Positions 6,381 through 59,777 are shown, counted from the first letter of the stretch. The stretch is 64,000 nt of DNA from an uncultured Eubacteriales bacterium (GCA_964525875.1 CAZGJS010000013.1:10254-74253); one strand, 5' to 3'. Notes: a model not told the origin generated them from the sequence alone. Numbers and translations are program-made.

Positions 6381-6428
6381 GACTTGGACCGGAGCGAAAG
6401 ACAGCGCCCGGCCGTCAAGGAAAAAACA

Positions 6429-6923
6429 ATGAAACGATTGTCCGCGCTGGTCACGGTATTGATTCTGGCCCTGGCGGGCGGAGCCTGGGCCACAATGGAA
6501 ATCCCCGACGGTGTCAAGGAACTGCTCCAGAAAAGATGCGCCGGCTGTCATAAAGGGAATCATCCCCCCAAGGGGCTGAACCTCGAGCCGGCCAACATCG
6601 CCGCCATCCTCGACGCATCGAGCAAAGAGGTCCCCACCCTGAAGATCATCGACACGAATTCGCCCGGTTCGAGCTACCTCCTCAAGAAGGTCCGGAGAGG
6701 CAAAGATATCGCCGGGAGCGGAATGCCCCCCCGAAAGGCCCTGGCCGCTGCGGAACTCCAGATCATCGAAACCTGGCTCGCCGGGCTCAAGCAGTCGTCC
6801 GTCCCCGGCGGAGATCTGCGCCTCGGATTCAATATCTTCAGTCCGCTTCACTTGAGCTGGAAGCGGACGGTGACGGTGAAGACGACCGGGACGGCTTTTC
6901 CGTCGACGACCAGCGGTTCGTAG
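6429..6923 (+). CDS. small secreted mono-heme c-type cytochrome
   Basis: Signal peptide MKRLSALVTVLILALAGGAWA; single CxxCH (CAGCHK); ATG 6429 preferred over the TTG of the listed ORF start 6384. Confidence 0.55.
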   Translation: MKRLSALVTVLILALAGGAWATMEIPDGVKELLQKRCAGCHKGNHPPKGLNLEPANIAAILDASSKEVPTLKIIDTNSPGSSYLLKKVRRGKDIAGSGMPPRKALAAAELQIIETWLAGLKQSSVPGGDLRLGFNIFSPLHLSWKRTVTVKTTGTAFPSTTSGS

Positions 6924-8503
6924 ACCCACTGCCGAACGGCGTCGATGGCCGCCTGGTCGAGTAGCGGGATGGAGCGCAGGACGATGACGTCCTTGACCTT
7001 GCCTTCCTCGTCGGTCTTGACGCCGAGGATGACCACGCCTTGCACTTCGGCCAGCCTGGCGATCACGGGGTAGACCGGCGGAACTTCCTTGACGAGCTTC
7101 GGCGGCTTGATGTCGTTTTCGGCCCGGACCGCGCCCTGGGCGAATTTTTCGAGGGTCTTCACCTTGTCGCCTTCTTTAAGCATGAAACGGACGGTCACCG
7201 TGAAGAGGACCTTGCGGGCGATGCCGCCGACTATGAGAGGTTCGTACTTCCACTGCCGGACCGCGTCGATGGCCGCCTGGTCGAGGAGAGGGATGGACCT
7301 CAGGACCTTGCTATCGATGACATTGCCCTGCTCGTCGGTCTTGGCCTCGAGGATGACCGTCCCCTCGACCCGGGCTTGGCGGGCAACCTGCGGATAGATG
7401 GGAGGGACCTGCTTGATGAGCTTCGGGGGCTTGATGTCGCCCACGGCCCGGACGGCGTCCCCTTCGAACTTCTGAAGCTCCTGGGGGCTCATGACCCCGC
7501 CCTGGCCCCCCCCGGAAACGCCTCCCTCGACGCCCTTGGAAACACCGCCCTGAACTCCGCCGGTGACGCCGCCGATTCCGCTCACGACTCCGCCGTGGAC
7601 ACCGCCGATCTCGCCGGCTTTCGGCTTCTTCTCGTCGTCGAGAGTGAACTGGAGTGTCACCGTGAACGTGACCGGCCGGGGTGTACCATTGATGACCATG
7701 GGCTCGTAGACCCATTGTTTAAGGGCGTCGACGGCCGCCTGGTCGAGCAACGGAATCGACCTCAAGACCTTCACCTCGATGACCTGCCCGTAGACATCTG
7801 TCGTCGCCTCGGCGATGACGACGCCTTCCACCCGGGCTTGGCGGGCGATTTCAGGATAGACCGGTTCGACTTCTTTGATGAGTTTGGGCGGCATGATCTT
7901 TCCGCCGCCGGGGAAGTGTTCGATGGGAACCCCGCTCCAACTCACGAGTCTCAGGGAGATGAAATAGGGCTTGAGCTGGGTATCCTCGAAGCCGAACACG
8001 GCAGCGCTCTTGTCGGGAAGCGTGAACTCGGTATCGAGCAGGTTGGTTTTCTTGTCACGACTCTGCTCGTAGACCTCGATCCGAAACTGGTTGCGCTCGG
8101 GAAGACGGCCAGGAGTGACTATGACCAGGTATTCCTGTCCGTTCAGCCGGAACATGTGGAAGGCCTTCTCGGATTTCCCTTTTTCCCAGACGAGGCTTGC
8201 CTCGGTCAGAAGGCCCACATCCTTCAGGTTGTAGACTTTCTTGATCTGTTGCTCGGCGGCCAGGTCCTCCTCGAGGTCGAAATTGGCAAAGAACAGGAAC
8301 TTGAGAAACGAGGACGTGACCGGCTTGGCCAGCTCCGCCGATTTCTCCCGAACGCCCTCGAGGATACGCATCTTCAGCTCGAACCCGGAGGCGGATCCTT
8401 TTAAGCTCTGAACGGCGTCGTCCGCCCCGCGGATGGCCGGGGCCGCCGCGGCGCAGAGGACGATAAAGGCCAGCGCTACCAGAAGACAATGAACTTTTCT
8501 CAT
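6848..8503 (-). CDS. secreted protein with three tandem TonB C-terminal domains
   Basis: Signal peptide MRKVHCLLVALAFIVLCAAAAPA (start 8503, RBS GGAGG upstream); three repeats of the ~80-aa motif VxPxYPxIARQARVEG...VLRSIPLLDQAA[VI]DA[LV][KR]QW.YEP (TonB_C fold); Gly-rich linker GGVHGGVVSGIGGVTGG; last gene of sigma/anti-sigma operon. Confidence 0.7.
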   Translation of the reverse strand: MRKVHCLLVALAFIVLCAAAAPAIRGADDAVQSLKGSASGFELKMRILEGVREKSAELAKPVTSSFLKFLFFANFDLEEDLAAEQQIKKVYNLKDVGLLTEASLVWEKGKSEKAFHMFRLNGQEYLVIVTPGRLPERNQFRIEVYEQSRDKKTNLLDTEFTLPDKSAAVFGFEDTQLKPYFISLRLVSWSGVPIEHFPGGGKIMPPKLIKEVEPVYPEIARQARVEGVVIAEATTDVYGQVIEVKVLRSIPLLDQAAVDALKQWVYEPMVINGTPRPVTFTVTLQFTLDDEKKPKAGEIGGVHGGVVSGIGGVTGGVQGGVSKGVEGGVSGGGQGGVMSPQELQKFEGDAVRAVGDIKPPKLIKQVPPIYPQVARQARVEGTVILEAKTDEQGNVIDSKVLRSIPLLDQAAIDAVRQWKYEPLIVGGIARKVLFTVTVRFMLKEGDKVKTLEKFAQGAVRAENDIKPPKLVKEVPPVYPVIARLAEVQGVVILGVKTDEEGKVKDVIVLRSIPLLDQAAIDAVRQWVYEPLVVDGKAVPVVFTVTVRFQLK

Positions 8504-8516
8504 ATCACCCCTCCTA

Positions 8517-8996
8517 TCAAGGATTTTTTGTCGCCCAGACGAAGACGGTGTCCGTCCCCTGGGGCTGGTAGACGAAGGTTTGGGCGGGCGCGCCGCCGAC
8601 GTTGATATAGTCAATCTGGAACCGGGCGGCCACCCGGATGGATTCCGGGTCGAAGCCTTGCCGGTTGATTTCCCGGAGAAGCCAGAAGCCGGTCACCGCG
8701 ACGACAGCCGCAGTTGCTGCGGCAGTGGCCCATCGCCAGCCCGCAGCCGCCGAATCCGTCCGCCGCTCGAGTCTGACCGTCTCGCACGCGGCTTGAGAGG
8801 ATACCCGCTCCCACAGGGCTTCGGCATCTCCGACCTGGTCGGAGGCCACGAACAGGCTCCTCGCCTCCACCCGGCTGAGGATCCGCGCCTGGCAGCGCGG
8901 GCATCTTTCCATGTGGCTCCGGATGAGAAAAGCCCGGAGCGGACGGAGGGGCAAGGCGGCGTAGACGATATCAACCATTCTGCAAAAGGCCATGGT
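8517..8996 (-). CDS. anti-sigma factor, zf-HC2 (ChrR/RsrA-like) with single TM helix
   Basis: HMERCPRCQARI = HxxxCxxC zinc-binding anti-sigma motif; TM AAAGWRWATAAATAAVVAVTGFWLL; start ambiguous (8996 or 8981), overlaps end of sigma gene. Confidence 0.6.
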   Translation of the reverse strand, partial: TMAFCRMVDIVYAALPLRPLRAFLIRSHMERCPRCQARILSRVEARSLFVASDQVGDAEALWERVSSQAACETVRLERRTDSAAAGWRWATAAATAAVVAVTGFWLLREINRQGFDPESIRVAARFQIDYINVGGAPAQTFVYQPQGTDTVFVWATKNP

Positions 8997-9543
8997 CGTT
9001 CTCCAGCAAAGCTTTGATTTTCCGGCGGGCGTTGAAAAGATAGACACGAGCCGTAGAAGCGGAGCATTCGAGGACCTCGGAGATGTCCCGGGCCGAATAG
9101 CCCTCGTTGGCCCAGAGGCAGAGGGCCGTCCGTTCGCGCGGCGAGAGCCTGGTCAAGAGGGCCGAAGGCAATGGTTTAGGGTCGGCGGGGTGGGGATTTC
9201 CCCCCCGTTCGGCGACGGCCGGCTCGAACCGGGCCCGGGCCGAAAACTCGGAAAAGCGCCGTTTCTTCTTGATCATGTCGAGCGACCTCCTGTAGACGAT
9301 GGTCAGAAGCCAGATCCTGAAATTCCTCATCGGGTCGTAGCGATCGAGATGACGGAAGACCTGGAGGAAGGTCTCCTGGCAGACGTCCTCGGCGTCCTGC
9401 CTGTTGCCGACGACGTTGAGGGCCACGGACATGACCAGGTTCCCGTAAGCCTCGACCATCGCCCGGCTGGAAACGGGGCTCCCCCGCAAACAGCCTTCGA
9501 TGATCTCTTTCTCTTCCACGGCGGGTCTCTTCTGTTCGTCCAT
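8971..9543 (-). CDS. RNA polymerase ECF-type sigma-70 factor
   Basis: Sigma70 region 2 (DAEDVCQETFLQVFRHLDRYD) and region 4 HTH (LSPRERTALCLWANEGYSARDISEVL). Confidence 0.8.
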   Translation of the reverse strand: MDEQKRPAVEEKEIIEGCLRGSPVSSRAMVEAYGNLVMSVALNVVGNRQDAEDVCQETFLQVFRHLDRYDPMRNFRIWLLTIVYRRSLDMIKKKRRFSEFSARARFEPAVAERGGNPHPADPKPLPSALLTRLSPRERTALCLWANEGYSARDISEVLECSASTARVYLFNARRKIKALLENDHGLLQNG

Positions 9544-9712
9544 GCGAGAATACGCCGTCCCCCCGCGGGGCGTTTAGGGGGAAACGGCCCTCCTTACTAT
9601 TCCTACAACTTTCCGCCGCGGGTGTCACCTATGCGGGCCGGAAAGAGGGACAGCCCTCATTCGGGGGGAAGCAAAAATGGCCCCGAATGAGGACAGTCCC
9701 TCTTTTCCGATT

Positions 9713-9750: not shown

Positions 9751-10728
9751 ATGGCCGAGAGACAGCGCAAAAGACCGAAACGGACGCCGCCGGACGCATC
9801 TGCCACGCCCGCCTTCGTGGTCGGCGAAGACCGCTACAAGGCGCTCGTCGAACAGCTCCCCGTCGGCGTCTACCGGACGACCCTCGACGGCATGATCATC
9901 GAGGCCAACGCCGCCCTGGTCCGGATGCTGGGCCACAAGAGGCCTCAGACCCTCTTCAACTGCAACGTCAAGGATTTCTACGTCAGGGGCGAGGACCGCT
10001 CCCGGCTCATCGAGAAATTGTCTTCGCAGCCCATATCGTTCCAGGAGTTCGAGATCCGGCGCGCCGACGGCCGGAGATTCTGGGTTCGCGACTATTGCCG
10101 CGGCGTCAAGGGGCCCGATGGGTCGATCCACCATCTCGACGGCATCCTCGTCGACATCACCGAGAGGAAAACGACGGATAGGAAGCTCAAGCTCACCCTA
10201 CGCAAGCTCCGATTGACCAACGAAAAGTACGAAAACCTGTCCCTGACCGACCATCTCACCGACCTCCATAACCGCCGGGGCTTCTTCACATTCGGCCTCC
10301 AGCAGATGAAGATCGCCAAGCGCCTCAAGGAAGACAATTACCTGCTCTTTCTCGATATCGACAACCTCAAAGAGGTCAACGACGCGCACGGCCACGCGGT
10401 CGGGGACCAGCTCCTGCAGGGCGTCGCGACCATCCTCAAGAACACGCTCCGGGAATCCGATGTCATCGGCCGGATCGGCGGGGACGAGTTCGCCGTCCTG
10501 GCCATGCGCTCTAAGGGCCTAGGCGAGCGGGCCCTCCTCGCCCGGATCGAGGATGGCGTCCAGAGGTTCCGCTTGAAAAAGTTCGGGCACCTGCGCCTGT
10601 CCGTGAGCATGGGCTTGGTCCGCGTCGACCCCCAGAAATACCAGCAGCTCGACGATTTCCTGGCCCATGCCGATTTCCTGATGTATCAACAGAAAAGAAG
10701 CAAGGAAAGACTAGCGAACCAGCCATAA
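9751..10728 (+). CDS. PAS-domain diguanylate cyclase (GGDEF)
   Basis: PAS-like N-terminus; intact GGDEF active site RIGGDEFAVL; I-site-like RESD upstream. Confidence 0.8.
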   Translation: MAERQRKRPKRTPPDASATPAFVVGEDRYKALVEQLPVGVYRTTLDGMIIEANAALVRMLGHKRPQTLFNCNVKDFYVRGEDRSRLIEKLSSQPISFQEFEIRRADGRRFWVRDYCRGVKGPDGSIHHLDGILVDITERKTTDRKLKLTLRKLRLTNEKYENLSLTDHLTDLHNRRGFFTFGLQQMKIAKRLKEDNYLLFLDIDNLKEVNDAHGHAVGDQLLQGVATILKNTLRESDVIGRIGGDEFAVLAMRSKGLGERALLARIEDGVQRFRLKKFGHLRLSVSMGLVRVDPQKYQQLDDFLAHADFLMYQQKRSKERLANQP

Positions 10729-17775: not shown

Positions 17776-18675
17776 TTAGAAAGAGGCCGGATTTTTGGCC
17801 TTGATATCGTTCGCTTCGGCGGCGAAAAGGATCTCGTTGTTCTCACCGGTCAGGCTGAGCCGCAGGCCGGTGCCCTGGAAAACCCACTCCGCGGTCAGAC
17901 GCAGACATCCCGTCGAAAGGGCCGTCCCCCAGCCCTCATTCCGTTCGGCGTAAGCCCTATCCTCCCGCCAGACGACGTTGTTGGTGCGCGGCTCGCCGAC
18001 TTTCTCGATGAGGAAATCCCTGATCTTGTTGTAATCGGCGACATAGCGGTCCTTATCCGCGTACTTTTCGAGGAGATGGAGGCGGACGGCGACGAGCTTC
18101 TCGTCGTTGAGGACGTAGGCGAGAAGGCACTTCTTTCCCAGGAGGTCGCGGTGATAGCTCAGGAACTCGAGGCCCCCGGAAACTTCGCGGGCGAGCGGAC
18201 GGCCTTCTGCTCGAAGGATGCCCGCCTTTGTCCTCCCCCACTCCACCATGGGCATGGACTCGCCCGTCAGGTCGATCTCCTTCGGGTCGACGATCTCTTC
18301 CTGCCCGGGGGTCAAGTTGACGACCCTGAGAGTGGAGTTGAGCTTGCGGACGAACCCATCCAGGACGTAGCCGCAGAGCGTCCGGCCCGAACGCGACGAG
18401 ACGAAGAGGATGTAGAACCAGTTGGTCCGGAACTTGATCGCGCTCGACAGCCTCACGACCGCGCCCCGGGACAGGGTCTCGACGACCGGACTGCGGCCGT
18501 CTGGCTCGAGATGGACGGCGGCCTTCTCGGCCGTGACCTCGAGCCGGACGATGGTCTCGGCGCGGGCCGGCCCGGGGGGGAACGAGACGCCGAAAAGGAG
18601 CAAGAAGGCGACGGCCGCGGACCGGGCCGCGAGGCCGGCACGGCCGCTTTCCCCGTGGTTCCTGGGCATTCTCAT
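17776..18675 (-). CDS. secreted hypothetical protein with N-terminal SH3b-like domain
   Basis: ATG 18675 (MRMPRNHG...signal peptide ending PARA); SH3b-like IVRLEVTAEKAAVHLEPDGRSPVVETLSRGAVVRL...WFYI...GYVLDGFV; last gene of the second sigma/anti-sigma operon. Confidence 0.45.
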   Translation of the reverse strand: MRMPRNHGESGRAGLAARSAAVAFLLLFGVSFPPGPARAETIVRLEVTAEKAAVHLEPDGRSPVVETLSRGAVVRLSSAIKFRTNWFYILFVSSRSGRTLCGYVLDGFVRKLNSTLRVVNLTPGQEEIVDPKEIDLTGESMPMVEWGRTKAGILRAEGRPLAREVSGGLEFLSYHRDLLGKKCLLAYVLNDEKLVAVRLHLLEKYADKDRYVADYNKIRDFLIEKVGEPRTNNVVWREDRAYAERNEGWGTALSTGCLRLTAEWVFQGTGLRLSLTGENNEILFAAEANDIKAKNPASF

Positions 18676-18780
18676 GGCAATCCCATCTTTCCGCACGCAT
18701 ACTATCGGATGGGACGATGGGGCTCACAATCCCCGCCGGAGATGATTCCGAGGGGGATATTCCTCACCCCGGGAGGGGGC

Positions 18781-19779
18781 TCATTTCAGCTGGAACCTGA
18801 CCGTCACCGTGAAAACGACGGGTCGGGGCCGCCCGTTGATGACCATGGGCTCATAGACCCACTGCCGGACGGCGTCGATGGCCGCCTGGTCTAGAAGCGG
18901 GATCGACCGCAGGACCTTCACGCCGATGACCCGCCCGTAGACGTCGGTCGTCGCTTCGACGATGACGATGCCCTCCACCCGGGCCTGGCGGGCGATCTCC
19001 GGGTAGAGCGGGTCGACCGACCTGACCAGCTTGGGCGGCTTGACGTCGCCGATGGCCCTCACGGGCGCTTCCACTTCGCCGACGACACCGCCCAGGACGC
19101 CGCCCACGACACCACCCAAGACGCCACCGACCACCCCGCCCTCGACGCCGCCCTCGACGCCGCCTTCGACGCCGATGTCCGAGAGCGTTTCCTCGGCGAT
19201 CTGCTCGGGGATCTCGATGGGCGCGACGAGTTTCCCCGCATCGACAGGCGCCGCGGCCTGGACACGCTTGATCCGCGCGCTCGCCGCCGGGCTCTTCCTC
19301 TTGGCCGGTGGCGGGGGGGGAGGCGGCGGGGGCGGAGGCGGAGCAAGAAAGGCGCTGTAGACCTCGACCGTCGGCAGCTCCCCCGTTCTCATCAGGGGAA
19401 GGACGATGAGCAGCAGGAGGATGGCCGCATGGGCCACCAGGGACAGCGGGAAGACAGCCGCCCGCACGCGCGTCACGCTTTCCGGGCGATAGAAGGAGTC
19501 CTTGAACATCTCGACCTCCGCAACACGGGATGCGGGGGCTCCGGCCTGCCGCCGGTCGATCCCGGCCCGGACGCGACCGGAAAAAGAGGCCCAGTATTCC
19601 GCTTCGCGGGGAACGGAGGGAGGCGTTTTGGGAAGTTGGTCGAGGTCCCGGATGAATTCGAGGTCCCTCCGGCACGAGGAACAGGCCTTGAGATGCTTCT
19701 CGACCCGCGAGCGGTCGGCCGCCCGGAGTTCGCCGTCGGCATAGGCCCCGATGAGTTCCTGGAATTTTCGGTGTCTCAT
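18781..19779 (-). CDS. anti-sigma factor (zf-HC2) fused to proline-rich linker, (GGV)n repeats and TonB C-terminal domain
   Basis: HLKACSSCRR (HxxxCxxC), TM helix VAHAAILLLLIVLPL, P12 run, GGVEGGVEGGV...repeats, C-terminal PPKLVRSVDPLYPEIARQARVEGIVIVEATTDVYGRV...LRSIPLLDQAAIDAVRQWVYEP (TonB_C); ATGA overlap with sigma gene. Confidence 0.75.
   Translation of the reverse strand: MRHRKFQELIGAYADGELRAADRSRVEKHLKACSSCRRDLEFIRDLDQLPKTPPSVPREAEYWASFSGRVRAGIDRRQAGAPASRVAEVEMFKDSFYRPESVTRVRAAVFPLSLVAHAAILLLLIVLPLMRTGELPTVEVYSAFLAPPPPPPPPPPPPAKRKSPAASARIKRVQAAAPVDAGKLVAPIEIPEQIAEETLSDIGVEGGVEGGVEGGVVGGVLGGVVGGVLGGVVGEVEAPVRAIGDVKPPKLVRSVDPLYPEIARQARVEGIVIVEATTDVYGRVIGVKVLRSIPLLDQAAIDAVRQWVYEPMVINGRPRPVVFTVTVRFQLK
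19110..19200. repeat. coding tandem repeat (12-nt unit gacgccgccctc and variants) encoding (GGV[EVL])n linker
   Basis: Direct nucleotide repeats within anti-sigma::TonB_C gene, GGVEGGVEGGVEGGVVGGVLGGVVGGVLGGVV. Confidence 0.6.
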
Positions 19780-19780
19780 C

Positions 19781-20371
19781 TCAAGCTCCCCTCGCCAGGG
19801 AATCCGTCAGGAGGCCTTTCAGCTTCTGTCGGGCCCGATTGAGCCGGGACATGACGGTGCCGATCGGCAGGTCGAGGGTCCGGGAGATCTCCTCGTAGCT
19901 CATGCTCTCTTGGAACCTCAGGACGAAGACGCTTCTCTGGTCGGCCGCGAGCGACGCCACCGCCCGTTCGAATCGGACCTCGAATTCGGCGCGCTCCAGC
20001 CGCTCCTCGGGACCGTCGGCCGGCGCGGAGAAAGGCGTCCTCCGCGCTCCCAGGGTCCCTTCGAGGAGCGGCCGCTCCCGCTTCCGGGCCTTGAGGTAAT
20101 TGAGCCCTGAGTTGAGGGCGATCCGCCGGAGCCAGGGGTAAATGGGCCATTGCACGTCGAACCGGTCCAGGGCGTAATAGGCCTTGATGAAGGTCTCCTG
20201 GGCCAGGTCGTCGGCCGACTGGTGGGCGCCGGTCAGGCGCCGGCAGAGGGCGTAGACCCTCTGCTGGTACTTCCGGACCAGGCTCTCGAAGGCGTCCATG
20301 TCTCCCTGCTGGGCTTTCCGGACGAGGACGGCATCCTCCGGATGCTCGGGCGGCCTCGTCGGAGCTCCCAT
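19781..20371 (-). CDS. RNA polymerase ECF-type sigma-70 factor
   Basis: Region 2 (DDLAQETFIKAYYALDRFD) and region 4 (MSYEEISRTLDLPIGTVMSRLNRAR). Confidence 0.8.
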   Translation of the reverse strand: MGAPTRPPEHPEDAVLVRKAQQGDMDAFESLVRKYQQRVYALCRRLTGAHQSADDLAQETFIKAYYALDRFDVQWPIYPWLRRIALNSGLNYLKARKRERPLLEGTLGARRTPFSAPADGPEERLERAEFEVRFERAVASLAADQRSVFVLRFQESMSYEEISRTLDLPIGTVMSRLNRARQKLKGLLTDSLARGA

Positions 20372-20583: not shown

Positions 20584-21501
20584 ATGAAAGGTCATCGCAA
20601 GACCACGCCCCCTGCTCTCGCTGTCCTCATGACTTTCCTGGCTCTGATCGGCCTGGTCCTTCTGGTTATGCCCGAGAAGGTCGCGGCCCGTCAGGACGGG
20701 CAATATGCGGGCATCGAGCAGTGCGCGGCGTGCCACGAGGAAACTGTCGCCCAGTTCCGCGAATCGATCCACGGGAAAAAGGGGTTCGAGATGCGCTCGA
20801 GCCACTCCTGTGAAACCTGCCACGGGGCCGGCAAGGCCCACGTGGACGCGGGCGGAGGCAAGGGCTCCATGACGACGATCAAGGGGCTCTCCAAGGAAAA
20901 ACAAACGGAGATGTGCCTGCAGTGCCATGACCGCGGGAACAAGACCGACTGGCAAGGGAGTCTCCACGAGACCCGTGGGCTTTCCTGCCAGGATTGTCAC
21001 TCGGTCCACAGCCCCGGCACCGACAAGGCTCAGCTCAAGGCGTCCGAAACGGATCTGTGCTTCACCTGCCATAAGCAGAAGCAGGCGCAGTTCTTCCGGG
21101 CATCCCACCACCCGGTCCGGGAAGGTAAGATGGCATGCTCCGACTGCCACAATCCCCACGCCGTCCAGGAAGGCAAGCTCGTCGACCAAGCGGCCGTGGC
21201 AGAGACCTGTTATCAGTGCCACGCCGAAAAGCGCGGGCCCTTCCTCTGGGAGCACATCCCCGTTCGGGAGGATTGCATGACCTGCCACGAAGCCCACGGG
21301 TCCAACCACATGAAGATGCTCAAGGTGAAGGAGCCCTTCCTTTGCCAGCGCTGCCATTCCGACACTCGGCACCCCGGCACGCTCTACGACCAGACCCAGC
21401 GGAACAACGACAGCAATCGCCTGTACGGCCGCTCCTGCACCAACTGCCATTCGACGGTCCACGGTTCGAACCATCCTTCGGGCAGGACCTACCTGAGGTG
21501 A
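20584..21501 (+). CDS. periplasmic decaheme c-type cytochrome, MtrA/DmsE/PioA family-like
   Basis: 305 aa, signal peptide, exactly ten CxxCH (CAACH CETCH CLQCH CQDCH CFTCH CSDCH CYQCH CMTCH CQRCH CTNCH); RBS AAAGGAGGA. Confidence 0.8.
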   Translation: MKGHRKTTPPALAVLMTFLALIGLVLLVMPEKVAARQDGQYAGIEQCAACHEETVAQFRESIHGKKGFEMRSSHSCETCHGAGKAHVDAGGGKGSMTTIKGLSKEKQTEMCLQCHDRGNKTDWQGSLHETRGLSCQDCHSVHSPGTDKAQLKASETDLCFTCHKQKQAQFFRASHHPVREGKMACSDCHNPHAVQEGKLVDQAAVAETCYQCHAEKRGPFLWEHIPVREDCMTCHEAHGSNHMKMLKVKEPFLCQRCHSDTRHPGTLYDQTQRNNDSNRLYGRSCTNCHSTVHGSNHPSGRTYLR

Positions 21502-21514
21502 CGAGGAGTTCCCA

Positions 21515-23728
21515 ATGAAAAAAACAATCCTATCCATTGCACTTGTGGGTCTCGTCCTCGACCTGTTCTCGGGTTCCGCCTGGGCCCAGGACAAGAAGGG
21601 CGAGGAACTCGTCTTCAAGGGGGCCGCTACGGCCGGCGTCCAGGCCGTCAAGGAGATCGAAAGGTCCTCCAAGTTCACCGAATACCGCGACGTCCCTCGG
21701 GGCTTTTTTCTGCAGTCACTGACTCTGGACCTGACGAAGGGAAGCCGTTATTTCTATCTCTCCGTGATGAATGTTCAGCAGGCCGACGAGCGGATCACGG
21801 CCAGCGTCGGTGACTACGGCAAATTCGCGCTCGATCTGGGCTACGATAGCATCCCCCACCGGTTCAGCTTCGACGGCGCCACATCGTACGTCGAAAAAAC
21901 CCCGGGCGTCTTCACCCTGAACGACGTCATCCGGTCCGCCGCAGAGGCCCTCGTCCCCACGGGGACAAGCACCAATATCGCCGCCGCACGGGCCCTCGTC
22001 TCGAGCTTCCTGACAAGCGCCGCCCCTATCGACCTGGGACTTCTGCGGAAAAAGGCGACCCTCGATTTCGCCTACACGCCGTCCGTTCCCTTCAGCTTCA
22101 ACGTCGCGGGAAGCTACGAAACACGGAGTGGGAACCGGCCCTACGGCACCCCCCTCGGATTCAGCAACGCGATCGAACTCCCCGAACCGATCCATTACAA
22201 GACGACCAACATGGACACGAGCCTCGAGTACCACAAGGGTTGGGGAACAGTCCGGGCGGGTTTCGCTGCGTCCCTGTTCGACAACGACGTCCAGACCCTG
22301 ACCTGGGACAATCCCTATCGGATCACCGACTCGACCTATGCCACGGCCTACAGCGCGGGCAACGGGACCGCTCACGGCCAGATGGCCCTCTGGCCCTCCA
22401 ACGACGCCGTAAGGTTTTATCTCAGCGGGTCCTTCAAACCGCTGAAGACCACGCGGATTTCGGCGGCCGCGTCCTACGGCACCTTCAGCCAGAACCAGAA
22501 ACTCCTGCCCTTCACGGTCAACACCGCCATCCCGGGCTCCGACCCGACGGCCGTCAACGCCCTCTCCGCGCCCCGTGAATCGGCCAAGGCCAAGGCGAAC
22601 ATCACCTCGCTCGACCTCACCTTGAACTCCCGGCTCATGAAGTCCGTTTATCTCGCGGCCGGATTCCGGTACTACGACTTCGCCAACAAGATCGAAGAGC
22701 TCGATATTCCCAACGGGTATGCCCGGCTGGATCAGGTCTGGGAAAACATCCCCATCGCCGTCGAACCCTATTCCTTCGCCCGTTCGCGGCTGTTCGGCGA
22801 CCTGACCTTCAACGTCCTCAAGAACACGTCCCTCAAGGTCGGTTACTCCCTCTATAGCGTCCGCCGGCACGAGGGCACCCACGAGACGGAAAAGAACAAG
22901 TCGGACGAGGGCACCTTCAAGGTCTCCGTCGATAGCAATCCGTTGGACTGGTTGATGCTCCGCGTCACCTACCTCAACTCCAAGCGGGACTGGTCCCTCG
23001 ACGACACCTGGTACGCCTACATCCCGAGCTTCAACTTCAAGCGTTATTTCGAGGCCAGCCGGGACCGGCAGTCCATCAACGCGCTCGTCGGCCTGACCCC
23101 GATCGACAACCTGGATATCCAGCTGACCTACTCGATCGGGCGTGACGATTACCCGAAGTCCGAATACGGGCTGACGCGGGACGACTTCGACATGTACGGC
23201 ATCGACCTCAGCTACGCCTTCGCCAAGAACCAGACGCTCTACGGTTTTTACACCCGCGAGATCTATGACGCCGACCAGGCCTCGCGTCAGAGCGGCGCGA
23301 CCTTTTCGGTGAACCCGTTGGACGATTGGACGGCGAACCTGAAGGACACCGTCGACACCTTCGGGGCCGGACAGACGATCGAGCTCCTCGCGGACAAGCT
23401 CAACTTCGACCTCTCAGCCTCGTATTCCAAGGCTGCCGGCTCTTCGTTCCTCTTCTCCCCGGCCGGCGGGACCCCGAACACCGCCCTCAACTTCACCGAC
23501 CCCCTCGACTCGACCACCTGGTGGACGATCCAGTCCTCCTTCAAGTGGAAGATGATGAAGAACCTCCTCGTCGTCCTTGGCTACTGGTACGAGCAGTATA
23601 ACCTCAAGGACATCGTCCGGAACGAAATCGCCGTGGATTACGCGGCCGCCGGCGCCATCTTTCTCGGCGCCCGGGAGCCCGGCTACAAGTATCACGTCGG
23701 CTCCGTGAAGTTCATCTACAGCTGGTAA
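21515..23728 (+). CDS. outer-membrane beta-barrel, decaheme-associated MtrB/PioB family-like
   Basis: 737 aa, signal peptide MKKTILSIALVGLVLDLFSGSAWA, C-terminal ...KFIYSW aromatic terminus, alternating amphipathic beta-strand pattern; 14 nt downstream of decaheme gene. Confidence 0.7.
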   Translation: MKKTILSIALVGLVLDLFSGSAWAQDKKGEELVFKGAATAGVQAVKEIERSSKFTEYRDVPRGFFLQSLTLDLTKGSRYFYLSVMNVQQADERITASVGDYGKFALDLGYDSIPHRFSFDGATSYVEKTPGVFTLNDVIRSAAEALVPTGTSTNIAAARALVSSFLTSAAPIDLGLLRKKATLDFAYTPSVPFSFNVAGSYETRSGNRPYGTPLGFSNAIELPEPIHYKTTNMDTSLEYHKGWGTVRAGFAASLFDNDVQTLTWDNPYRITDSTYATAYSAGNGTAHGQMALWPSNDAVRFYLSGSFKPLKTTRISAAASYGTFSQNQKLLPFTVNTAIPGSDPTAVNALSAPRESAKAKANITSLDLTLNSRLMKSVYLAAGFRYYDFANKIEELDIPNGYARLDQVWENIPIAVEPYSFARSRLFGDLTFNVLKNTSLKVGYSLYSVRRHEGTHETEKNKSDEGTFKVSVDSNPLDWLMLRVTYLNSKRDWSLDDTWYAYIPSFNFKRYFEASRDRQSINALVGLTPIDNLDIQLTYSIGRDDYPKSEYGLTRDDFDMYGIDLSYAFAKNQTLYGFYTREIYDADQASRQSGATFSVNPLDDWTANLKDTVDTFGAGQTIELLADKLNFDLSASYSKAAGSSFLFSPAGGTPNTALNFTDPLDSTTWWTIQSSFKWKMMKNLLVVLGYWYEQYNLKDIVRNEIAVDYAAAGAIFLGAREPGYKYHVGSVKFIYSW

Positions 23729-23732
23729 AACG

Positions 23733-23781
23733 CCCGGGCCGGGAGGGGGACGCTCTCCCCTTCCCGGCCCGGATTCTCTTT
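23733..23781. terminator. bidirectional rho-independent terminator between convergent operons
   Basis: Hairpin cccgggccgggaggggga-cgctc-tccccttcccggcccgg followed by ATTCTCTTT on + strand and preceded by AAAA (TTTT on - strand). Confidence 0.6.
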
Positions 23782-23867
23782 ACGTCTCTCCCCCCTCCCT
23801 CAGGACCTCTCGATGCCCTGGTCGATTGAGGGGCATTTCTCCCCGGGGAGACGGTTCAAAGGGAGTG

Positions 23868-24683
23868 TCAGGGCGCCGGGACGGCTTGGCGAGCAGGCTC
23901 TGTCCCCCCGGCTTCGAGGGCCTTTTGCCTCTCGGCCAGGATCTTCCGGTATTCCAGGGCGTGAAGAGTCTTCAGCTCGTGCCCGCTGATCTTGCCGTTG
24001 ATCCATATCTTGCTCATCGGGAAGACTTCGGGGTTGAGGTGGACGTTGTACATGTGCCAGATGATGATCGCCAGGAAGGCCAGCATGGCCTCGTAGCCGT
24101 GGGCGATGACGAAAATATCGTGGACCCAGAGAGGGAAGATGCTGAGCGACAGATCCACGTTCCACATGAAGAAGCCGGAGATGATCATGATGAACGACCC
24201 CCAGGCCACGGAGAGATATTCGAGCTTCTCGACAAAATTATAGCGACCGTACTCCGGCGGATTCTCGAACCTCCAGAAGGGATGGCGGTCGAAAAACTTC
24301 CGAAGGATCCCCTTCCGGTAGAGCCAGCGCGATAAGCCGACGTTGTACCCGAAAAGGGCCACGGCGTCGAGGCCGTCCTTCGGATGCGGGATCATCTCCT
24401 TGAAGTTGTCCCGGCCCCTCCGGGTCAGGATGGTGTAGCCGGAGTGCCAGACCATATCGACGATCAGGACGATCGCCGCGACGCGGTGCAAGACCCCGCG
24501 ATAGGTGAACGCCTTCTCGATGCTGAAGATGGACTTGAAGATGCGCAGCTCGTAGAACATCAGGGGCAGCCCCGTCACGACGAGGAGCGAGAAAGAAACG
24601 ATGAGGAGGACGTGCTGGACCCTCTCGGCCGGGTTCATCCGGAGAAAAACTTCGTCGTCGCGGATGAGCGTCTTTCCGGTCAT
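23868..24683 (-). CDS. di-heme membrane cytochrome b (FdnI/HydC/cytochrome b561-like quinone-interacting subunit)
   Basis: ATG 24683 (MTGKTL...) in ATGA overlap with upstream gene; 5 TM helices with conserved His (HVLLIV, HRVAAIV, HGYEAM, WHMYNVH). Confidence 0.6.
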   Translation of the reverse strand: MTGKTLIRDDEVFLRMNPAERVQHVLLIVSFSLLVVTGLPLMFYELRIFKSIFSIEKAFTYRGVLHRVAAIVLIVDMVWHSGYTILTRRGRDNFKEMIPHPKDGLDAVALFGYNVGLSRWLYRKGILRKFFDRHPFWRFENPPEYGRYNFVEKLEYLSVAWGSFIMIISGFFMWNVDLSLSIFPLWVHDIFVIAHGYEAMLAFLAIIIWHMYNVHLNPEVFPMSKIWINGKISGHELKTLHALEYRKILAERQKALEAGGTEPARQAVPAP

Positions 24684-25918
24684 CTTTTCCATCGGATCCT
24701 CATGCGGCGATAAAGGTCGGCGGCGATGAAGGCCAGGAACACGAAGATCAATCCGCCGATGACGACCATGTAGACGATCTTGACGGTATAGGCCCAGCGG
24801 TTCTCGGTTTTCTCCGAGATGACGTGGATGCGGCCCTTGGAGAAGTTGTCGCCGGCGCCCGGATGGCAGGTCCCGCATGTTGCGGCCATGTTGGCCGGGT
24901 TGATGGACGAGAGGGGGTCGGAGGACGGCCGGATGCCGTGGTGCCCGTGGCAGCTCGAGCAGTTGGCGACCTTGACTTCGCCGAACTTCGAAGCCGTGCC
25001 GTGGTAGGACGCGGAGAAGGTCTTAAGCCGGGACGTCAGAAGGCCATACTGTCTGGCCAGGGTCTCGTCGTCGTGGCAGCGGGTGCAGACGGCGGCCACC
25101 TTCGTGGCGTAAACGCCCGAGCCGAGGTCCTCGGGGGAGCGGATGTCGTGCTCGCTGTGGCAGTCCGTGCAGACGGGGACGCCCTGGACGCCCTTGACAT
25201 AGTCTTTGCCGTGAACGCCCTCGAGATAATCCCGCTCAATGCCGGTATGGCACGTCCCGCAAGTTCGAATGATGTTCTGGCGCGAGACTTTGGACCGAGG
25301 GTCGTCGACCGTACGGACCGAGTGGCCGCCGTGGCAGCTGAGGCAGGTCGCGGAAAGACTCAGGCCCGCCTTGGACAGGGCCCGGAAATGAGCGCTGTCC
25401 TTATAGCCGCCGACGAATCCCGCCACCCGCTTGGCCTTGACGCGCTCGAGATGGCAGGTCAGGCAGGTGTCGGGGATGTTCATCGGGGAGGTGTGCGACT
25501 GGGCGTCTTTGGCGGGACGGATATCGTGAGTGCCGTGGCAATCCTTGCATTGGACGGTGATGGGCGAGTCCCCGTCATGCTGACGGCCATGGATGCTGTC
25601 GCGGATCGCGGTGGCTGCCTCCTCGTGGCAGGACGCGCAATCGACCGGCTTGAGCTTCGCGGCGTGAGGGAAATCCGTGAACTTTTTGAGGTCGGCGTGA
25701 CAGTCGACGCAGGCGATCCCGGCCGAGCCGTGGATCGAAGCGGTGAAACTAGCGCCGTCCACGAAAAGGGAGCGGCCCTGCTCCGTTTTCAACCCGGAGT
25801 CCCCATGGCAGGTCAGACAGTCGTCGTCGGATTGTCCGGCGAGGGCCGGCGCGGCGGTCCAGAGAACGACCAGCGCCGCCGGGAGGGCAAGCCGCAGGAA
25901 CGCGCCGCGGAGCTTCAT
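24680..25918 (-). CDS. undecaheme c-type cytochrome with C-terminal TM anchor
   Basis: ATG 25918 (MKLRGAFL signal peptide); 11 CxxCH; C-terminal TM VKIVYMVVIGGLIFVFLAFIAADL. Confidence 0.75.
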   Translation of the reverse strand: MKLRGAFLRLALPAALVVLWTAAPALAGQSDDDCLTCHGDSGLKTEQGRSLFVDGASFTASIHGSAGIACVDCHADLKKFTDFPHAAKLKPVDCASCHEEAATAIRDSIHGRQHDGDSPITVQCKDCHGTHDIRPAKDAQSHTSPMNIPDTCLTCHLERVKAKRVAGFVGGYKDSAHFRALSKAGLSLSATCLSCHGGHSVRTVDDPRSKVSRQNIIRTCGTCHTGIERDYLEGVHGKDYVKGVQGVPVCTDCHSEHDIRSPEDLGSGVYATKVAAVCTRCHDDETLARQYGLLTSRLKTFSASYHGTASKFGEVKVANCSSCHGHHGIRPSSDPLSSINPANMAATCGTCHPGAGDNFSKGRIHVISEKTENRWAYTVKIVYMVVIGGLIFVFLAFIAADLYRRMRIRWKR

Positions 25919-25956
25919 CGGGTCTTGAATCCTCGCCTCCGGCGGCGGAAGCGGAC

Positions 25957-26475
25957 TTACTTCCCCGGGACGGGGTGCTTGATCTTTTCCCAGAAGGAGG
26001 CGAAGTCGAAGCTGATGCCGTGGGGATTCTCGTGACACTTCAGGCACTGGGCTTTGATGGCGTCGGGGCTGCCGTAGAGGATCAGTCCGTTCTTCACGGA
26101 CTCAGCCTTGTCCTTCATCACGCTGAGCTTCTTGTACTCGCTGCCGGGGCCGTGGCAGACCTCGCAAGATACGCCATCGGACTTGAGGTCGGGGGCTTTG
26201 GCGGCGAGCGGAGAGTGGCACTTCAGACAGCGCGGGTCGTCCGCCGGCTTGTCCACGCCCATGGCCTGACAAGCCTCGGCCGCCTTGGACGAGGTCAGGG
26301 CTTCCAAGGACTTGGAATGCTTGGAGCTTTCCCAGATCACATACTGCCGTCCCTGGTTCTCCGACTTATGGCAAATCTGGCATTTCTGGGCGCCGACGTA
26401 GGCGAATTCCTGGCCGATGGCCGGGACGGCCAGAATGAGCAGACCCAAGGCTGACAGCGCAAGCTTGTTTTTCAT
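25957..26475 (-). CDS. tetraheme c-type cytochrome (cytochrome c554-like), secreted
   Basis: Signal peptide; CQICH, CLKCH, CEVCH, CLKCH. Confidence 0.75.
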   Translation of the reverse strand: MKNKLALSALGLLILAVPAIGQEFAYVGAQKCQICHKSENQGRQYVIWESSKHSKSLEALTSSKAAEACQAMGVDKPADDPRCLKCHSPLAAKAPDLKSDGVSCEVCHGPGSEYKKLSVMKDKAESVKNGLILYGSPDAIKAQCLKCHENPHGISFDFASFWEKIKHPVPGK

Positions 26476-26574
26476 GGTCACTTCCTATAACTCATATAAG
26501 GTCTATCGGATAAATATTGTATTAAACCGGCGGTGAATTGTCAACGCGAATGGACAGAATTGCTTGCCGGGCTC

Positions 26575-27843
26575 TTACGGCCGGGAACCGCCGCGGCCTT
26601 CTCCCTCTCGCCGGGCACGCGCCATGCGCCTGATTTTCAGGGCAAGGGCGGCCGCGAAGACGGCCAGGAGAACGGTGGTCACGGCCAAGCCCCGCCGCCG
26701 GAAGCGGGCCTCGTCCAGAGCCTTCTCGCCGGCGGTGCGGACCCCGGCGAGCGCCGCTTCTCCTTCGGCGACGGTCTTGGCGATCTCGGCCGTATCGAGA
26801 CCGTGGGTCAAGTTCTTGGCGGTGACGAGGACGGTCGTCACGTCCAAGAGCTTGAATTCCGCATCGCTGACTTCGACGCCCTTCTGCTTGGCCCGCGCCA
26901 AGAGGCCCTCGGCGGCCTGGAAACCGGACTCGAAGCGGTCGAGCGTCCGGCGGAGCTCGGCCGCCGCCTCGAACCCCCGCGACCCTTTTTCGTGGCACTG
27001 GACGCACACGGCACGATCGTCGGTCCCGATCATCGCCGTGGAGGGGGTAAGGATCTTGTGGTTTCCGTGGCAGGCTTCGCACTCGCTCGCCCCGAGCTCG
27101 TCGAAGGCCTTTTTATGGGGGCTCTTGGTGAAGAGCTCGCCCGTCGAGGGATGGCACTGGCGGCAGACCGAGGCCACCGACGTGACGGATGGCGGATAGG
27201 CGCCGTGGTTTCCGTGGCAGTCATTGCAGACGGGAGCGGAAAGGTCCTTCTTGTCATAGAGGGCCTTGGCGTGGACGCTGGCTTTGTAGTCGTCCAACTG
27301 GTCCGTCGGGATCCTATAGCCCTCCATGAAGGCCTTGTCGGCGTGGCAGCGGCCGCAAGTCTGGGGGATATTCCACGGAAAAGTCGGGGATTTGGGGAAC
27401 CTGGCCGATTGGATGCCATGGACACCGTGGCAGTCGGTGCAGACGGCCGCTTTCGTATCCCCGGATTTCAGGAGCTGCCCGTGGCGGCTGGTTCCATATT
27501 GACTGAGCTGGTCCGTGCGCAGGGCGGGATTGTAGGCCCGCATGGCCGCGGCGTCGGAGTGGCACCCTCCACAGAACTGGGGGATTTGGCTCCGTTTGGG
27601 CGATCCCTTGAACGATTTGTCCTTGGCCAGGTCGACGTCGTCCTTGTCCGGATTCCCTCCGTGACAGTCCTTGCAGCTCAGCCCGTACTCGGCGTGGACA
27701 TCGGCAGCGAAAGAGGCGGCCGGGACCTTGAGCTCGTCGTCGAGCTGGTTATGACACTCGATACAGCTGTTTTTCTGCCCGAAGGCTAGGAGCGGCGCAA
27801 AAAGCGCCGCCACGGTAAGAAAGCGGATCGCACGGATTTTCAT
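26575..27843 (-). CDS. nonaheme c-type cytochrome with C-terminal TM anchor
   Basis: Signal peptide MKIRAIRFLTVAALFAPLLAFG; 9 CxxCH; C-terminal helix LAVTTVLLAVFAAALAL. Confidence 0.75.
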   Translation of the reverse strand: MKIRAIRFLTVAALFAPLLAFGQKNSCIECHNQLDDELKVPAASFAADVHAEYGLSCKDCHGGNPDKDDVDLAKDKSFKGSPKRSQIPQFCGGCHSDAAAMRAYNPALRTDQLSQYGTSRHGQLLKSGDTKAAVCTDCHGVHGIQSARFPKSPTFPWNIPQTCGRCHADKAFMEGYRIPTDQLDDYKASVHAKALYDKKDLSAPVCNDCHGNHGAYPPSVTSVASVCRQCHPSTGELFTKSPHKKAFDELGASECEACHGNHKILTPSTAMIGTDDRAVCVQCHEKGSRGFEAAAELRRTLDRFESGFQAAEGLLARAKQKGVEVSDAEFKLLDVTTVLVTAKNLTHGLDTAEIAKTVAEGEAALAGVRTAGEKALDEARFRRRGLAVTTVLLAVFAAALALKIRRMARARREGEGRGGSRP

Positions 27844-27855
27844 ATTATCGTCTCG

Positions 27856-28932
27856 TCAGAGTTTCGGCAACGCATAGGTCAGGACCGTCATGACCGCGAT
27901 GTAGGCGGCCAGGACCAGACCGATCCAGGTGAAAGGGGGGCTTCGCTTCTCGCGGCCGGCGCGCCGGTCCAGGAAGGGTATCAGCATCCAGAGCAGGCCC
28001 CCGGCCATGAAGCCCAATATGGCCAGCCTCTCCCCTTCGATGGACAGGATGTGCGCGGGGACGATCTTGAGGGTCGTGAACATGAAGGTAAAATACCACT
28101 CCGGTTTGATGCCGAGCGGGGTCGCGGCCAGCGGGTCGGCTTTCGTTCCGATCTCCCATGGTAAAAATACGCACAGGACGCCGATGAGGACGAGCATCAG
28201 GGTCCAGCCGAGTGCATCCTTGTACAGGAAGTCGGGAAAGAAGGGGATTTCCTTCGTCCCGCGCTCGCCGACGGGCTTGCTCATGCCCAGGGTTTGGACG
28301 AGGAGGATGTGGATGCCGATGAGGATCAGCGCGGCCAGGGGCAGCAGGGCGACGTGGAACCAGAAGAAACGGGAAAGGGTCGCCTGGGAGACCTCGGGCC
28401 CTCCCAAGATGAACGTTTTGAGCCAATTGCCTATGAACGGGAGGCTCCCGGCGATGTCTGTCCCGACGCGGGTCGCGAAATAGGACAGCTCGTTCCAGGG
28501 GAGGAGGTAGCCGCTGAACCCGAAGGCCATGAAGAGGACTAACAGGAGGAAGCCGGTCACCCACGTCAGTTCCCGGGGTTTACGGTAGGCCTTGAGGAAG
28601 AATGTCGAGAACATGTGGACGAAGAGGAGGCCGATGAGGATGTTGGCCGTCCAGCTGTGGACGGAGCGGATGAGCCAGCCGAACTTGACCCCGCTCATGA
28701 TGAACTGGATGCTTTCGTGGGCGGCGTCGATGTGGGGAGTATAGTAAAGAAGGAGCATGGCGCCCGTCGCGACCTGGATCCCGGTCAGGAACAGGCAGAT
28801 CCCGCCGAAGAAATACCAGAATGAATGGCGGTGTTCGGGAACGGTCTTTTTCTTTCCAAAGGCGATGAGCCCTGAAAGCAGGAAGCGTTCGTCCAGGAAT
28901 TTCCAGACGCTCTGCCCGATTTTCTTGGCCAT
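27856..28932 (-). CDS. cytochrome b of a Rieske/cyt b (bc-type) complex
   Basis: ATG 28932 (MAKKIGQSVWKFL); 8+ TM helices, heme-ligand His pairs, Qo-site PEWY motif (IKPEWYF). Confidence 0.8.
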   Translation of the reverse strand: MAKKIGQSVWKFLDERFLLSGLIAFGKKKTVPEHRHSFWYFFGGICLFLTGIQVATGAMLLLYYTPHIDAAHESIQFIMSGVKFGWLIRSVHSWTANILIGLLFVHMFSTFFLKAYRKPRELTWVTGFLLLVLFMAFGFSGYLLPWNELSYFATRVGTDIAGSLPFIGNWLKTFILGGPEVSQATLSRFFWFHVALLPLAALILIGIHILLVQTLGMSKPVGERGTKEIPFFPDFLYKDALGWTLMLVLIGVLCVFLPWEIGTKADPLAATPLGIKPEWYFTFMFTTLKIVPAHILSIEGERLAILGFMAGGLLWMLIPFLDRRAGREKRSPPFTWIGLVLAAYIAVMTVLTYALPKL

Positions 28933-28933
28933 G

Positions 28934-29359
28934 TCAGCTTTTCCTGGAGACGATGATGTCGGGGCCGGAAACCTCGACGGCGTAGGTTTCGAGCGGTCTC
29001 GGCGGCGGCCCGGACAGGACGTTCCCGCTGAGGTCGAAACGGCCGTTGTGACAGGGGCAGAAGAGGGTCCCTGTTTCGCCGTCATAGCGGACCGTGCATG
29101 TCAAGTGGGTACAGATAGCCGAGAGGGCGACCAGGGTCCCCTCCGCCGTGTTGATCAAGACGGCCGGCGCCGAACCGAACTTGAAGATCTTGGCCGCGTT
29201 GGGGGGAAGCTCGCCGGCCTTGGCCGCCGCGACGCTGTTCTGGACGGCGCCGGTCCTCTTGGACGGGAGGACGTAGCGAACGACCGGATAGACGAAGGCG
29301 GCGATCGTGGCCAGAAGGCTTCCGCCGAAGAAGATGTCGAGGAAACTGCGGCGTTTCAC
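28934..29359 (-). CDS. Rieske [2Fe-2S] iron-sulfur protein
   Basis: N-terminal TM anchor; CTHLTC ... CPCHNG cluster-binding boxes; ATGA overlap with upstream gene. Confidence 0.85.
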   Translation of the reverse strand: MKRRSFLDIFFGGSLLATIAAFVYPVVRYVLPSKRTGAVQNSVAAAKAGELPPNAAKIFKFGSAPAVLINTAEGTLVALSAICTHLTCTVRYDGETGTLFCPCHNGRFDLSGNVLSGPPPRPLETYAVEVSGPDIIVSRKS

Positions 29360-59566: not shown

Positions 59567-59777
59567 ATTCGCCTCCTTGCGGCGGATTCCCGGAAGCTTT
59601 CGCTTCCAACATTGATACATTCGACCGGACTGGATATTCCGCTTCCAAGAGGGACAGTCCCCTCCGAGGACAGTCCCTCTTCAGTCCCCCCTTTCAAAAT
59701 CCGGGCGAATCGCATACAATACCCCTCTTGTTCGACCCCGCGGTTGGACCTATTCGACCGAAAGCGCCGCGACAACC

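Follow-up and report, generated by a model that had tools for sequence, protein, structure and literature searches.

In a 64,000-nucleotide (nt) stretch of DNA from an uncultured Eubacteriales bacterium (GCA_964525875.1 CAZGJS010000013.1:10254-74253; this whole stretch is called the window below), three closely packed genes on the minus strand (6848-9543) encode, in this order, an extracytoplasmic function (ECF) sigma factor, a candidate anti-sigma factor and a predicted exported protein carrying three TonB_C domains. The unit is tentatively interpreted here, at somewhat less than even confidence, as a three-component envelope-signalling ECF sigma switch specific to the Aminicenantes lineage, in which the exported protein would act as the periplasmic partner of the anti-sigma factor. 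This interpretation was adopted because the unit has a constant core, namely the sigma factor, an anti-sigma factor with a conserved tail and a protein that joins a characteristic N-terminal domain (N-domain) to at least one TonB_C domain, and because that protein has intact TonB_C domains and no motor. An earlier description made from the DNA alone (hereafter the sequence-only reading) had placed the genes in the same interval and in the same order:

8971..9543, minus strand: sigma gene, encoding an ECF (group 4) sigma factor of 190 amino acids (aa)
8517..8993, minus strand: anti-sigma gene, encoding a single-pass anti-sigma candidate of 158 aa
6848..8503, minus strand: TonB_C gene, encoding a predicted exported protein of 551 aa with the N-domain and three TonB_C domains

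What is known of TonB C-terminal domains concerns almost exclusively their role at the tip of an energy-transducing machine, and the orthologues of the third protein carry the database names 'energy transducer TonB' or 'TonB family protein'. Its elements in the window are the following:

8420..8503, minus strand: Sec-type signal peptide as read from the sequence, MRKVHCLLVALAFIVLCAAAAPAIRG followed by ADD
7904..8419, minus strand: N-domain, about 170 aa (residues ~29-200), predicted all-beta, the signature of the family
7637..7894, minus strand: TonB_C domain 1 (residues 204-289), located by Pfam and TIGR01352 stretches
7433..7636, minus strand: Gly/Val-rich (GGVxGGV) flexible linker, residues 290-357, with 22 Gly and 11 Val in 68 residues
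7175..7432, minus strand: TonB_C domain 2 (residues 358-443), located by Pfam, TIGR01352 and a PDB sequence match
6851..7108, minus strand: TonB_C domain 3 (residues 466-551), located by Pfam and TIGR01352, behind a second linker of 22 residues

The three tandem TonB_C domains described in the sequence-only reading were recovered by Pfam TonB_C (PF03544), which matched in three near-full-length stretches (E=3.3e-56, 188 bits versus a cut-off of 24.6), and by TIGR01352 (E=2e-43, 146.5 bits versus a cut-off of 27.1). Additionally, the TonB_C region matched by sequence the structures PDB 2k9k (Vibrio TonB2), 6fip and 6i97 (Pseudomonas) and 1u07 and 2gsk (E. coli). In functional TonB domains the conserved core corresponds to E. 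coli Y163-P164, G174, G186 and W213 (10.1101/2023.07.07.548152), and each of the three repeats carries VYP or IYP, (V)EG or (V)QG, one of YG, QG or EG, and QW, so that the YP, both Gly and the Trp are represented in all of them; the terminal strand is strongly conserved as well. By these signatures, the three TonB_C domains are genuine and intact. Domains 2 and 3 are 81% and 90% identical, respectively, to the same-position domains of an orthologue (L006), and since each copy is nearest to the orthologous copy in the same position, the triplication is old within the clade.

The likeness to E. coli TonB (PDB 1u07, 2gsk) is restricted to these homologous C-terminal domains, with their YP, Gly and Trp residues and a conserved last strand of the kind that pairs with TonB boxes. 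The protein differs in its three tandem C-terminal domains and its N-domain, and no ExbBD genes are linked to it. The N-terminal hydrophobic segment lacks the S-x3-H motif of the TonB transmembrane (TM) helix, and the place of the Pro-rich rod is taken by a folded beta domain of about 170 aa and by Gly/Val-rich linkers. The predicted signal peptide (26-28 aa) has a positive n-region, a hydrophobic h-region followed by helix-breaking Pro and small residues, and an A-x-A-type c-region. Equivalent signal peptides are found in most orthologues, and a minority (L003/L016, L024, L026, L040, P0004, P0005, P0008 and P0013) carry instead a lipobox (..A-C-G-K-K) and a Pro/Ala-rich tether. Such an exchange of one signal for the other favours export, in which the hydrophobic segment is removed, over a TonB-like membrane anchor, so that the protein would be soluble or lipid-anchored depending on the orthologue, in line with the sequence-only reading, which had taken it to be exported and not TM-anchored. 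Lacking a TM helix, S-x3-H and a Pro-rich rod, it cannot couple to ExbB/ExbD. The genuine TonB_C domains and the orthologue names would suit an ordinary TonB paralogue, in which an uncleaved signal serves as anchor and energy is transduced together with ExbB and ExbD. This is very improbable, given the Pro and small residues behind the h-region, the lipobox and tether of several orthologues, the folded domain in place of a rod, the absence of ExbBD genes nearby and the missing S-x3-H, whereas a TonB fusion elsewhere in the window (module B, described below) does carry that motif as S-L-V-A-H. For a motor-less exported protein the name 'energy transducer TonB' is misleading.

The N-domain was smaller than the ~250 aa assigned to it in the sequence-only reading; it follows the signal peptide and spans residues ~29-200. 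Nothing meaningful was retrieved for it from Pfam at E<=10 and nothing from a PDB-sequence profile search, and its structural model gave no significant match against the PDB in Foldseek. That model, computed with AlphaFold2 from 16 sequences (mean predicted local distance difference test score, pLDDT, of 72, and near 90 in the core), predicts eight long strands of 7-15 residues and one helix, and the most conserved motifs are VTSSYL, VFNLKDVxLLTEA and LRLYEG. Eight modelled strands of such length in about 170 aa could also form an OmpA-like eight-stranded barrel or an oligomerising sheet at the outer membrane, in which case the TonB_C domains would work as a 'reverse TonB' reaching the anti-sigma tail or the peptidoglycan. 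The unit would then report envelope spacing or integrity in the manner of RcsF-IgaA, or the protein would be a structural envelope component under ECF control. Lipobox orthologues without Asp at position +2, a variable number of TonB_C domains on Gly-rich linkers, which gives the array the look of a length-adjustable spacer, and the outer-membrane-proximal accessory domains of distant members would all agree with this. The last strand of the N-domain (G-K-P-Y-F-L-S-F) may also resemble the beta-signal of outer-membrane proteins. Against it, VTSSYL, VFNLKDVxLLTEA and LRLYEG would fall in an extracellular loop and a membrane strand, a placement seldom seen in outer-membrane barrels but typical of soluble domains that mediate interactions. 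Anchoring of this kind is considered quite unlikely.

The distribution of the family also speaks for a regulatory partnership. An exhaustive profile search with the N-domain (E<=0.001) gave 170 clusters at 50% identity, and 143 sequences were retrieved and checked with local hidden Markov models (HMMs); the near-full-length members among them all have a signal peptide, the N-domain and 1-4 TonB_C domains. A genome scan (one genome per species, with a seven-sequence alignment as the query) returned 64 loci, nearly all labelled Aminicenantes or Aminicenantales, the other labels being some 'uncultured Eubacteriales' metagenome-assembled genomes, one Terriglobales and one Desulfaltia. In 54/54 loci whose upstream sequence exceeds 1300 nt, and down to an N-domain identity of 41%, the sigma and anti-sigma genes lie directly upstream on the same strand; in one of these (L008) the anti-sigma gene is interrupted by a run of N. 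No neighbour beyond the triad is universally conserved among the related loci. The number of TonB_C copies is three in 33 loci, two in 15, one in nine and four in five. Even two very distant members with other C-terminal domains (P0186/L074 and P0179/L075) still follow an ECF sigma gene and a gene for an HxxxCxxC protein of 163-173 aa. The functional link between anti-sigma factors and TonB_C domains put forward in the sequence-only reading is strongly supported by this synteny.

In distant members of the N-domain family, extra modules add to the TonB_C array or replace it. They comprise GspD-N0/STN/FecR_C-like domains with Peptidase_M23 (P0186, P0226, P0194 and P0179), Poly_export with SLBB (P0144, and also L006, 5477-7425, and P0286), CarboxypepD_reg with LOR (P0269), PD40 (P0270) and an N-terminal GWxTD domain (P0149 and P0191). 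All of these modules are periplasmic and outer-membrane-proximal, and domains of the STN/FecR_C type are contact modules of classical cell-surface signalling.

Some irregular loci were also inspected. The TonB_C gene is broken in L001 (6001-7711), L002/L040 and L052, with several frame changes in each; the possibility that it is a pseudogene was rejected in view of the repeated frame changes and of the intact gene in most loci, and the frame changes are probably assembly errors and not gene decay. In L008 (3467-5908), an exact internal duplication yields four TonB_C domains. Apparent fusions of the anti-sigma factor with the N-domain proved to be artefacts, caused by the run of N in the L008 scaffold and by a read-through gene call in P0017.

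The sigma gene product (9543..8971) matched Sigma70_r2 (E=1e-19) and Sigma70_r4_2 (E=7e-10), as well as TIGR02937 at 81 bits versus a cut-off of 42.9 bits, and consists of regions sigma-2 and sigma-4 only in about 190 aa, as ECF (group 4) sigma factors do. The public gene call of 190 aa bears the JGI name 'RNA polymerase sigma-70 factor (ECF subfamily)', and alternative public calls start 8 codons downstream and give 182 aa. For the anti-sigma gene, the public call is identical to ATG 8993..8517 (158 aa). A homologue search gave 234 significant matches, and among the 120 matches listed the lengths are 152-164 aa, nearly all being 158 aa. Three elements of the anti-sigma protein are of importance here:

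8892..8915, minus strand: HMERCPRC, an HxxxCxxC zinc-binding-type motif (residues 27-34)
8676..8738, minus strand: TM helix as read from the sequence (residues 86-106), without S-x3-H
8532..8552, minus strand: DTVFVWA, a strand resembling a TonB box, 4 residues before the C-terminus

H27, C31 and C34 are unchanged across 42 aligned homologues, and the motif belongs to the cytoplasmic N-terminal domain of a protein whose gene adjoins the sigma gene, as in zinc-binding class I anti-sigma factors. No FecR or DUF4880 domain was found in the protein by the Pfam search. Its periplasmic tail is short, as had been described from the sequence, and measures 52 aa (residues 107-158).

No other part of the anti-sigma factor is as well conserved as this tail. 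It holds three conserved beta-strand segments and follows the pattern RFxIxY(V/I)xV..xPAxx(F/Y)(V/I)(Y/F)QP..(S/T)D(T/M)(V/I)(F/I)(V/I)WA, after which about 4 residues lead to the C-terminus; in the window protein the peptide is …QPQGTDTVFVWATKNP, with W153 and A154. The relaxed tail motif is present in 118/120 of the listed homologues and at 58/59 loci, nearly always with 4 residues after it. Known TonB boxes include DTLVVTA in BtuB, DTIVVTA in FepA and DTMVVWP in colicin B. The consensus pentapeptide in E. coli is ETVIV (PMC9841981), and a FhuA/TonB contact comparison has residues I9, T10, V11 and A13 of the FhuA box pairing with the last strand of TonB. Across the 83,716 aa of six-frame window open reading frames (ORFs), the pattern [DE]T[LIVMF][LIVMFT]V.[AP] has a single match, at DTVFVWA. 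This agreement with the TonB-box consensus should be taken as a lead and not as a finding, since the motif is short and the match was made post hoc.

The three genes probably form a single operon. The anti-sigma ATG (8993) sits within the 3' end of the sigma gene, with a 23-nt overlap, and the TonB_C gene starts at ATG 8503, 13 nt past the anti-sigma stop, with AGGAGG 7 nt before the ATG; TTG 8614, the mechanical ORF start, was dropped in favour of this ATG with its AGGAGG. In orthologous units, the gap between the anti-sigma and TonB_C genes is 1-13 nt. A scan of the unit for intergenic terminator-like or promoter-like sites gave nothing convincing, which together with the overlap and the short gap points to co-transcription. 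A conserved ECF-type promoter candidate is present only 5' of the sigma gene:

9551..9577, minus strand: CTAAAC-N17-CGTA, an ECF-type promoter candidate, invariant as a block in seven aligned orthologous upstream regions

The only match to this pattern in the 64-kb window is the one in front of its own operon, where 0.08 matches would be expected by chance, and no further regulon member was found with the motif elsewhere in the window. This arrangement suggests that the unit is autoregulated by its own sigma factor. With the candidate -10 element, CGTA, ending some 8 nt short of the sigma ATG and no recognisable Shine-Dalgarno sequence, the sigma transcript may have little or no leader.

A mechanism consistent with these elements can be proposed, of which the binding events, the direction of the switch and the nature of the signal are conjectural. 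The exported protein would be a periplasmic sensor or co-regulator of the anti-sigma factor, and its TonB_C domains would capture an exposed strand by beta-augmentation, as is known for TonB_C domains. At rest, it would hold and shield the anti-sigma tail through the TonB-box-like strand, the N-domain or both. When competing TonB boxes became exposed near the outer membrane, whether on transporters loaded with ligand or on further TonB-box proteins, or upon a disturbance of the envelope, the exported partner would be drawn away, leaving the tail open to proteolysis and releasing the sigma factor, which would transcribe its own operon from the AAC-N17-CGTA promoter. A more specific version holds that the TonB-box/TonB_C pair has left energy transduction and now serves as a signalling switch, in which a TonB box at the periplasmic C-terminus of the anti-sigma factor is read by a dedicated, motor-less, multivalent TonB_C receptor. 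The sigma factor would then report either how far TonB_C is competed for by TonB boxes exposed at the outer membrane, or the integrity or spacing of the envelope. This version is plausible but clearly on the doubtful side.

Several observations weigh against the proposed switch. The third genes of ECF operons are often outputs and not regulators. Distant members retain just a hydrophobic-x3-W-A core in the anti-sigma tail (DMIIVWA, HMIIVWA and, in the most distant ones, DKLIVWA), and the invariant Trp-Ala is not known as a feature of TonB boxes, so that the tail may instead belong as a strand to a small fold or serve for docking to the N-domain. Neither TonB-dependent transporter genes nor ExbBD genes were detected in the scanned window ORFs or in the fetched flanks, and therefore the lineage's own TonB boxes are not available there for comparison with the tail. 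The anti-sigma protein itself gave no match to Pfam zf-HC2 (PF13490) even at E<=10, and NCBIfam NF052375 'antisigma' matched at E=1e-7 with 32 bits, below its cut-off of 100. The zf-HC2 label of the sequence-only reading is thus upheld by the HxxxCxxC motif, the topology and the gene position, but not by any HMM match above threshold. Finally, an AlphaFold2 model of the anti-sigma factor based on 42 homologues has low confidence (pLDDT 47); it places four helices before the TM helix, with a helix at residues 83-109.

The main rival explanation makes the third protein the principal product of the regulon and not its regulator. Under this explanation, motor-less TonB_C domains would occupy the TonB boxes of transporters and stop TonB-dependent import, so that the protein would be a natural dominant-negative TonB; the benefit could be reduced uptake of metals or toxins, or a block of TonB-dependent bacteriocins and phages. 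In PMC9841981, Howard et al. 2001 is cited for the inhibition of TonB-dependent iron import in E. coli by an over-produced periplasmic TonB domain. Such recombinant fragments resemble the protein described here in being soluble, motor-less competitors for TonB boxes; they are, however, laboratory constructs, whereas the present protein is natural, conserved and multivalent and has its own N-domain and regulatory partners. The TonB_C domains of the triple protein are 64-78% identical to the TM-anchored TonB-type domains of the same genome and should therefore recognise the same boxes, 1-4 copies would raise avidity, and the TonB_C gene stands last in an apparently autoregulated operon. On the other hand, inhibition of import explains neither the invariant, family-specific N-domain nor the strongly conserved anti-sigma tail with its TonB-box-like strand. 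It also leaves unexplained why the TonB_C gene is, in the contexts examined, never found apart from this anti-sigma family, and why distant members carry STN/FecR_C-like, M23 and Poly_export domains. This explanation is regarded as unlikely.

Among known systems, FecI/FecR/FecA is similar in combining a cytoplasmic sigma factor, a single-pass anti-sigma factor and a third, TonB-related envelope protein, and domains of the STN/FecR_C/GspD-N0 type appear in distant members of the third protein and nowhere else in the unit. In classical cell-surface signalling, an outer-membrane partner guards the anti-sigma factor from proteolysis until the signal arrives (PMC11637429), and the idea that a partner shields the anti-sigma factor was taken from this source. 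The present unit differs from FecI/FecR/FecA in that its anti-sigma factor is not FecR-like and has a tail of 52 aa only, that its third component is the TonB side of the TonB-box/TonB_C pair and not an outer-membrane transporter, and that its cassette has no linked transporter gene, none being present in the window and none conserved in the flanks.

A further parallel is offered by the RseA/RseB system of sigma-E, in which RseB senses lipopolysaccharide intermediates. The gene order (sigma factor, anti-sigma factor, periplasmic protein) is the same, and by analogy a partner gating anti-sigma proteolysis is proposed here; there is, however, no relationship in sequence or fold, and the binding modules of the present unit are TonB_C domains. 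Regarding proteins with several TonB_C domains, Bacteroides TonB9 and TonB10 have two, and other TonB proteins of that genus carry M56, CarboxypepD_reg or DUF4488; dual-TonB_C proteins seemed limited to Bacteroidetes and TonB proteins with extra domains are uncharacterised (10.1101/2023.07.07.548152). The family described here differs in its 1-4 domains, its occurrence in Aminicenantes, its different N-domain and its obligate link to an ECF sigma/anti-sigma pair. As the sequence-only reading had stated of a soluble, trivalent TonB_C protein, no described role was found: the searchable literature contained nothing on exported multi-TonB_C proteins or on their link to ECF systems, and nothing on TonB in Aminicenantes beyond gene lists.

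A second association of an ECF sigma factor with TonB_C, termed module B, and referred to in the sequence-only reading, lies at 18781-20371 on the minus strand of the window. It consists of an ECF sigma gene (20371..19781) followed, after a gap of about 1 nt, by a gene (18781-19779) for a 332-aa fusion of a cytoplasmic zf-HC2 domain with a complete TonB, that is, a TM helix ('SLVAHAAILLLL'), a poly-Pro rod, a GGV linker and one TonB_C domain. Both genes are kept as a two-gene unit in a relative (L072/L073). Module B resembles the three-gene unit (module A) in that an ECF anti-sigma factor is physically associated with TonB_C in the same genome, and the TonB_C domains are 78% identical; it differs in joining a complete TonB to the cytoplasmic anti-sigma domain in a two-gene unit. 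The description of the two modules as paralogous did not hold, because the sigma factors are only 25% identical and the anti-sigma factors have no detectable similarity beyond HxxxCxxC; for the same reasons, a recent duplication of the whole module was rejected. Nor was the proposal that the TonB_C function had been split off from a fused form sustained, as module B is a whole TonB plus an anti-sigma domain and HxxxCxxC was found in 0/143 of the retrieved N-domain family members. Judged by sequence, modules A and B are analogous associations and not the fused and split descendants of one ancestor. An anti-sigma domain tethered to a TonB motor is interesting in its own right.

An orphan TonB-like gene (58847-59620, minus strand, 257 aa) was also observed in the window, encoding a TM helix, a Pro-rich region and a TonB_C domain. 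Its helix has the equivalent His, with Ala for Ser (A-L-V-H), and no ExbB/ExbD genes neighbour it. Between its C-domain and that of module B the identity is 83%; for domain 1 of the triple protein, the values are 78% with the module B domain and 76% with the orphan one. Overall, identity among the five TonB_C domains of the window is 64-83%, versus 25% between the sigma factors. Paralogous TonB_C domains are not usually this alike, and shared ligands or gene conversion could be the cause.

Directly downstream of module B, a gene (17776-18696, minus strand) encodes a 306-aa secreted protein with no Pfam match, whose predicted mature N-terminus, 'ETIVRLEVTA', is TonB-box-like (consensus ETVIV). 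This gene is not conserved downstream of the module B orthologue in L072. In the divergent direction from module B, a large cluster resembling those of extracellular electron transfer occupies 20584-33537:

21515-23728: MtrB/PioB-type outer-membrane porin
20584-21501, 24680-26047, 26575-27843 and 29356-31479: multihaem cytochromes
27856-29085: cytochrome b
31397-33537: ResB/CcsA cytochrome c biogenesis genes

The three-gene unit is flanked on one side by a PAS-GGDEF (diguanylate cyclase) gene (9751-10728, plus strand), divergent from the sigma gene across an intergenic region of about 200 nt and present in the same place at 31 of the 64 related loci, about half. On the other side, a convergent cytochrome-c-like ORF (CxxCH; 6384-6923, plus strand) overlaps the 3' end of the TonB_C gene by 76 nt. 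Its orthologues in L001-L003 have 121-128 aa and no overlap, and the long C-terminus of the window ORF may be an extended reading frame and not real coding sequence.

At the level of annotation, a systematic error would be corrected for a family that is now named 'energy transducer TonB'. The compact system of three proteins, with a defined promoter motif and a candidate peptide ligand, could be rebuilt in E. coli even though the lineage is uncultured. If the proposed switch is true, the unit would represent a class of cell-surface signalling that needs neither a FecR-type anti-sigma factor nor an STN-bearing transducer, TonB_C domains would gain a second, regulatory job, and these bacteria would possess a new route by which information passes from the outer envelope to transcription.

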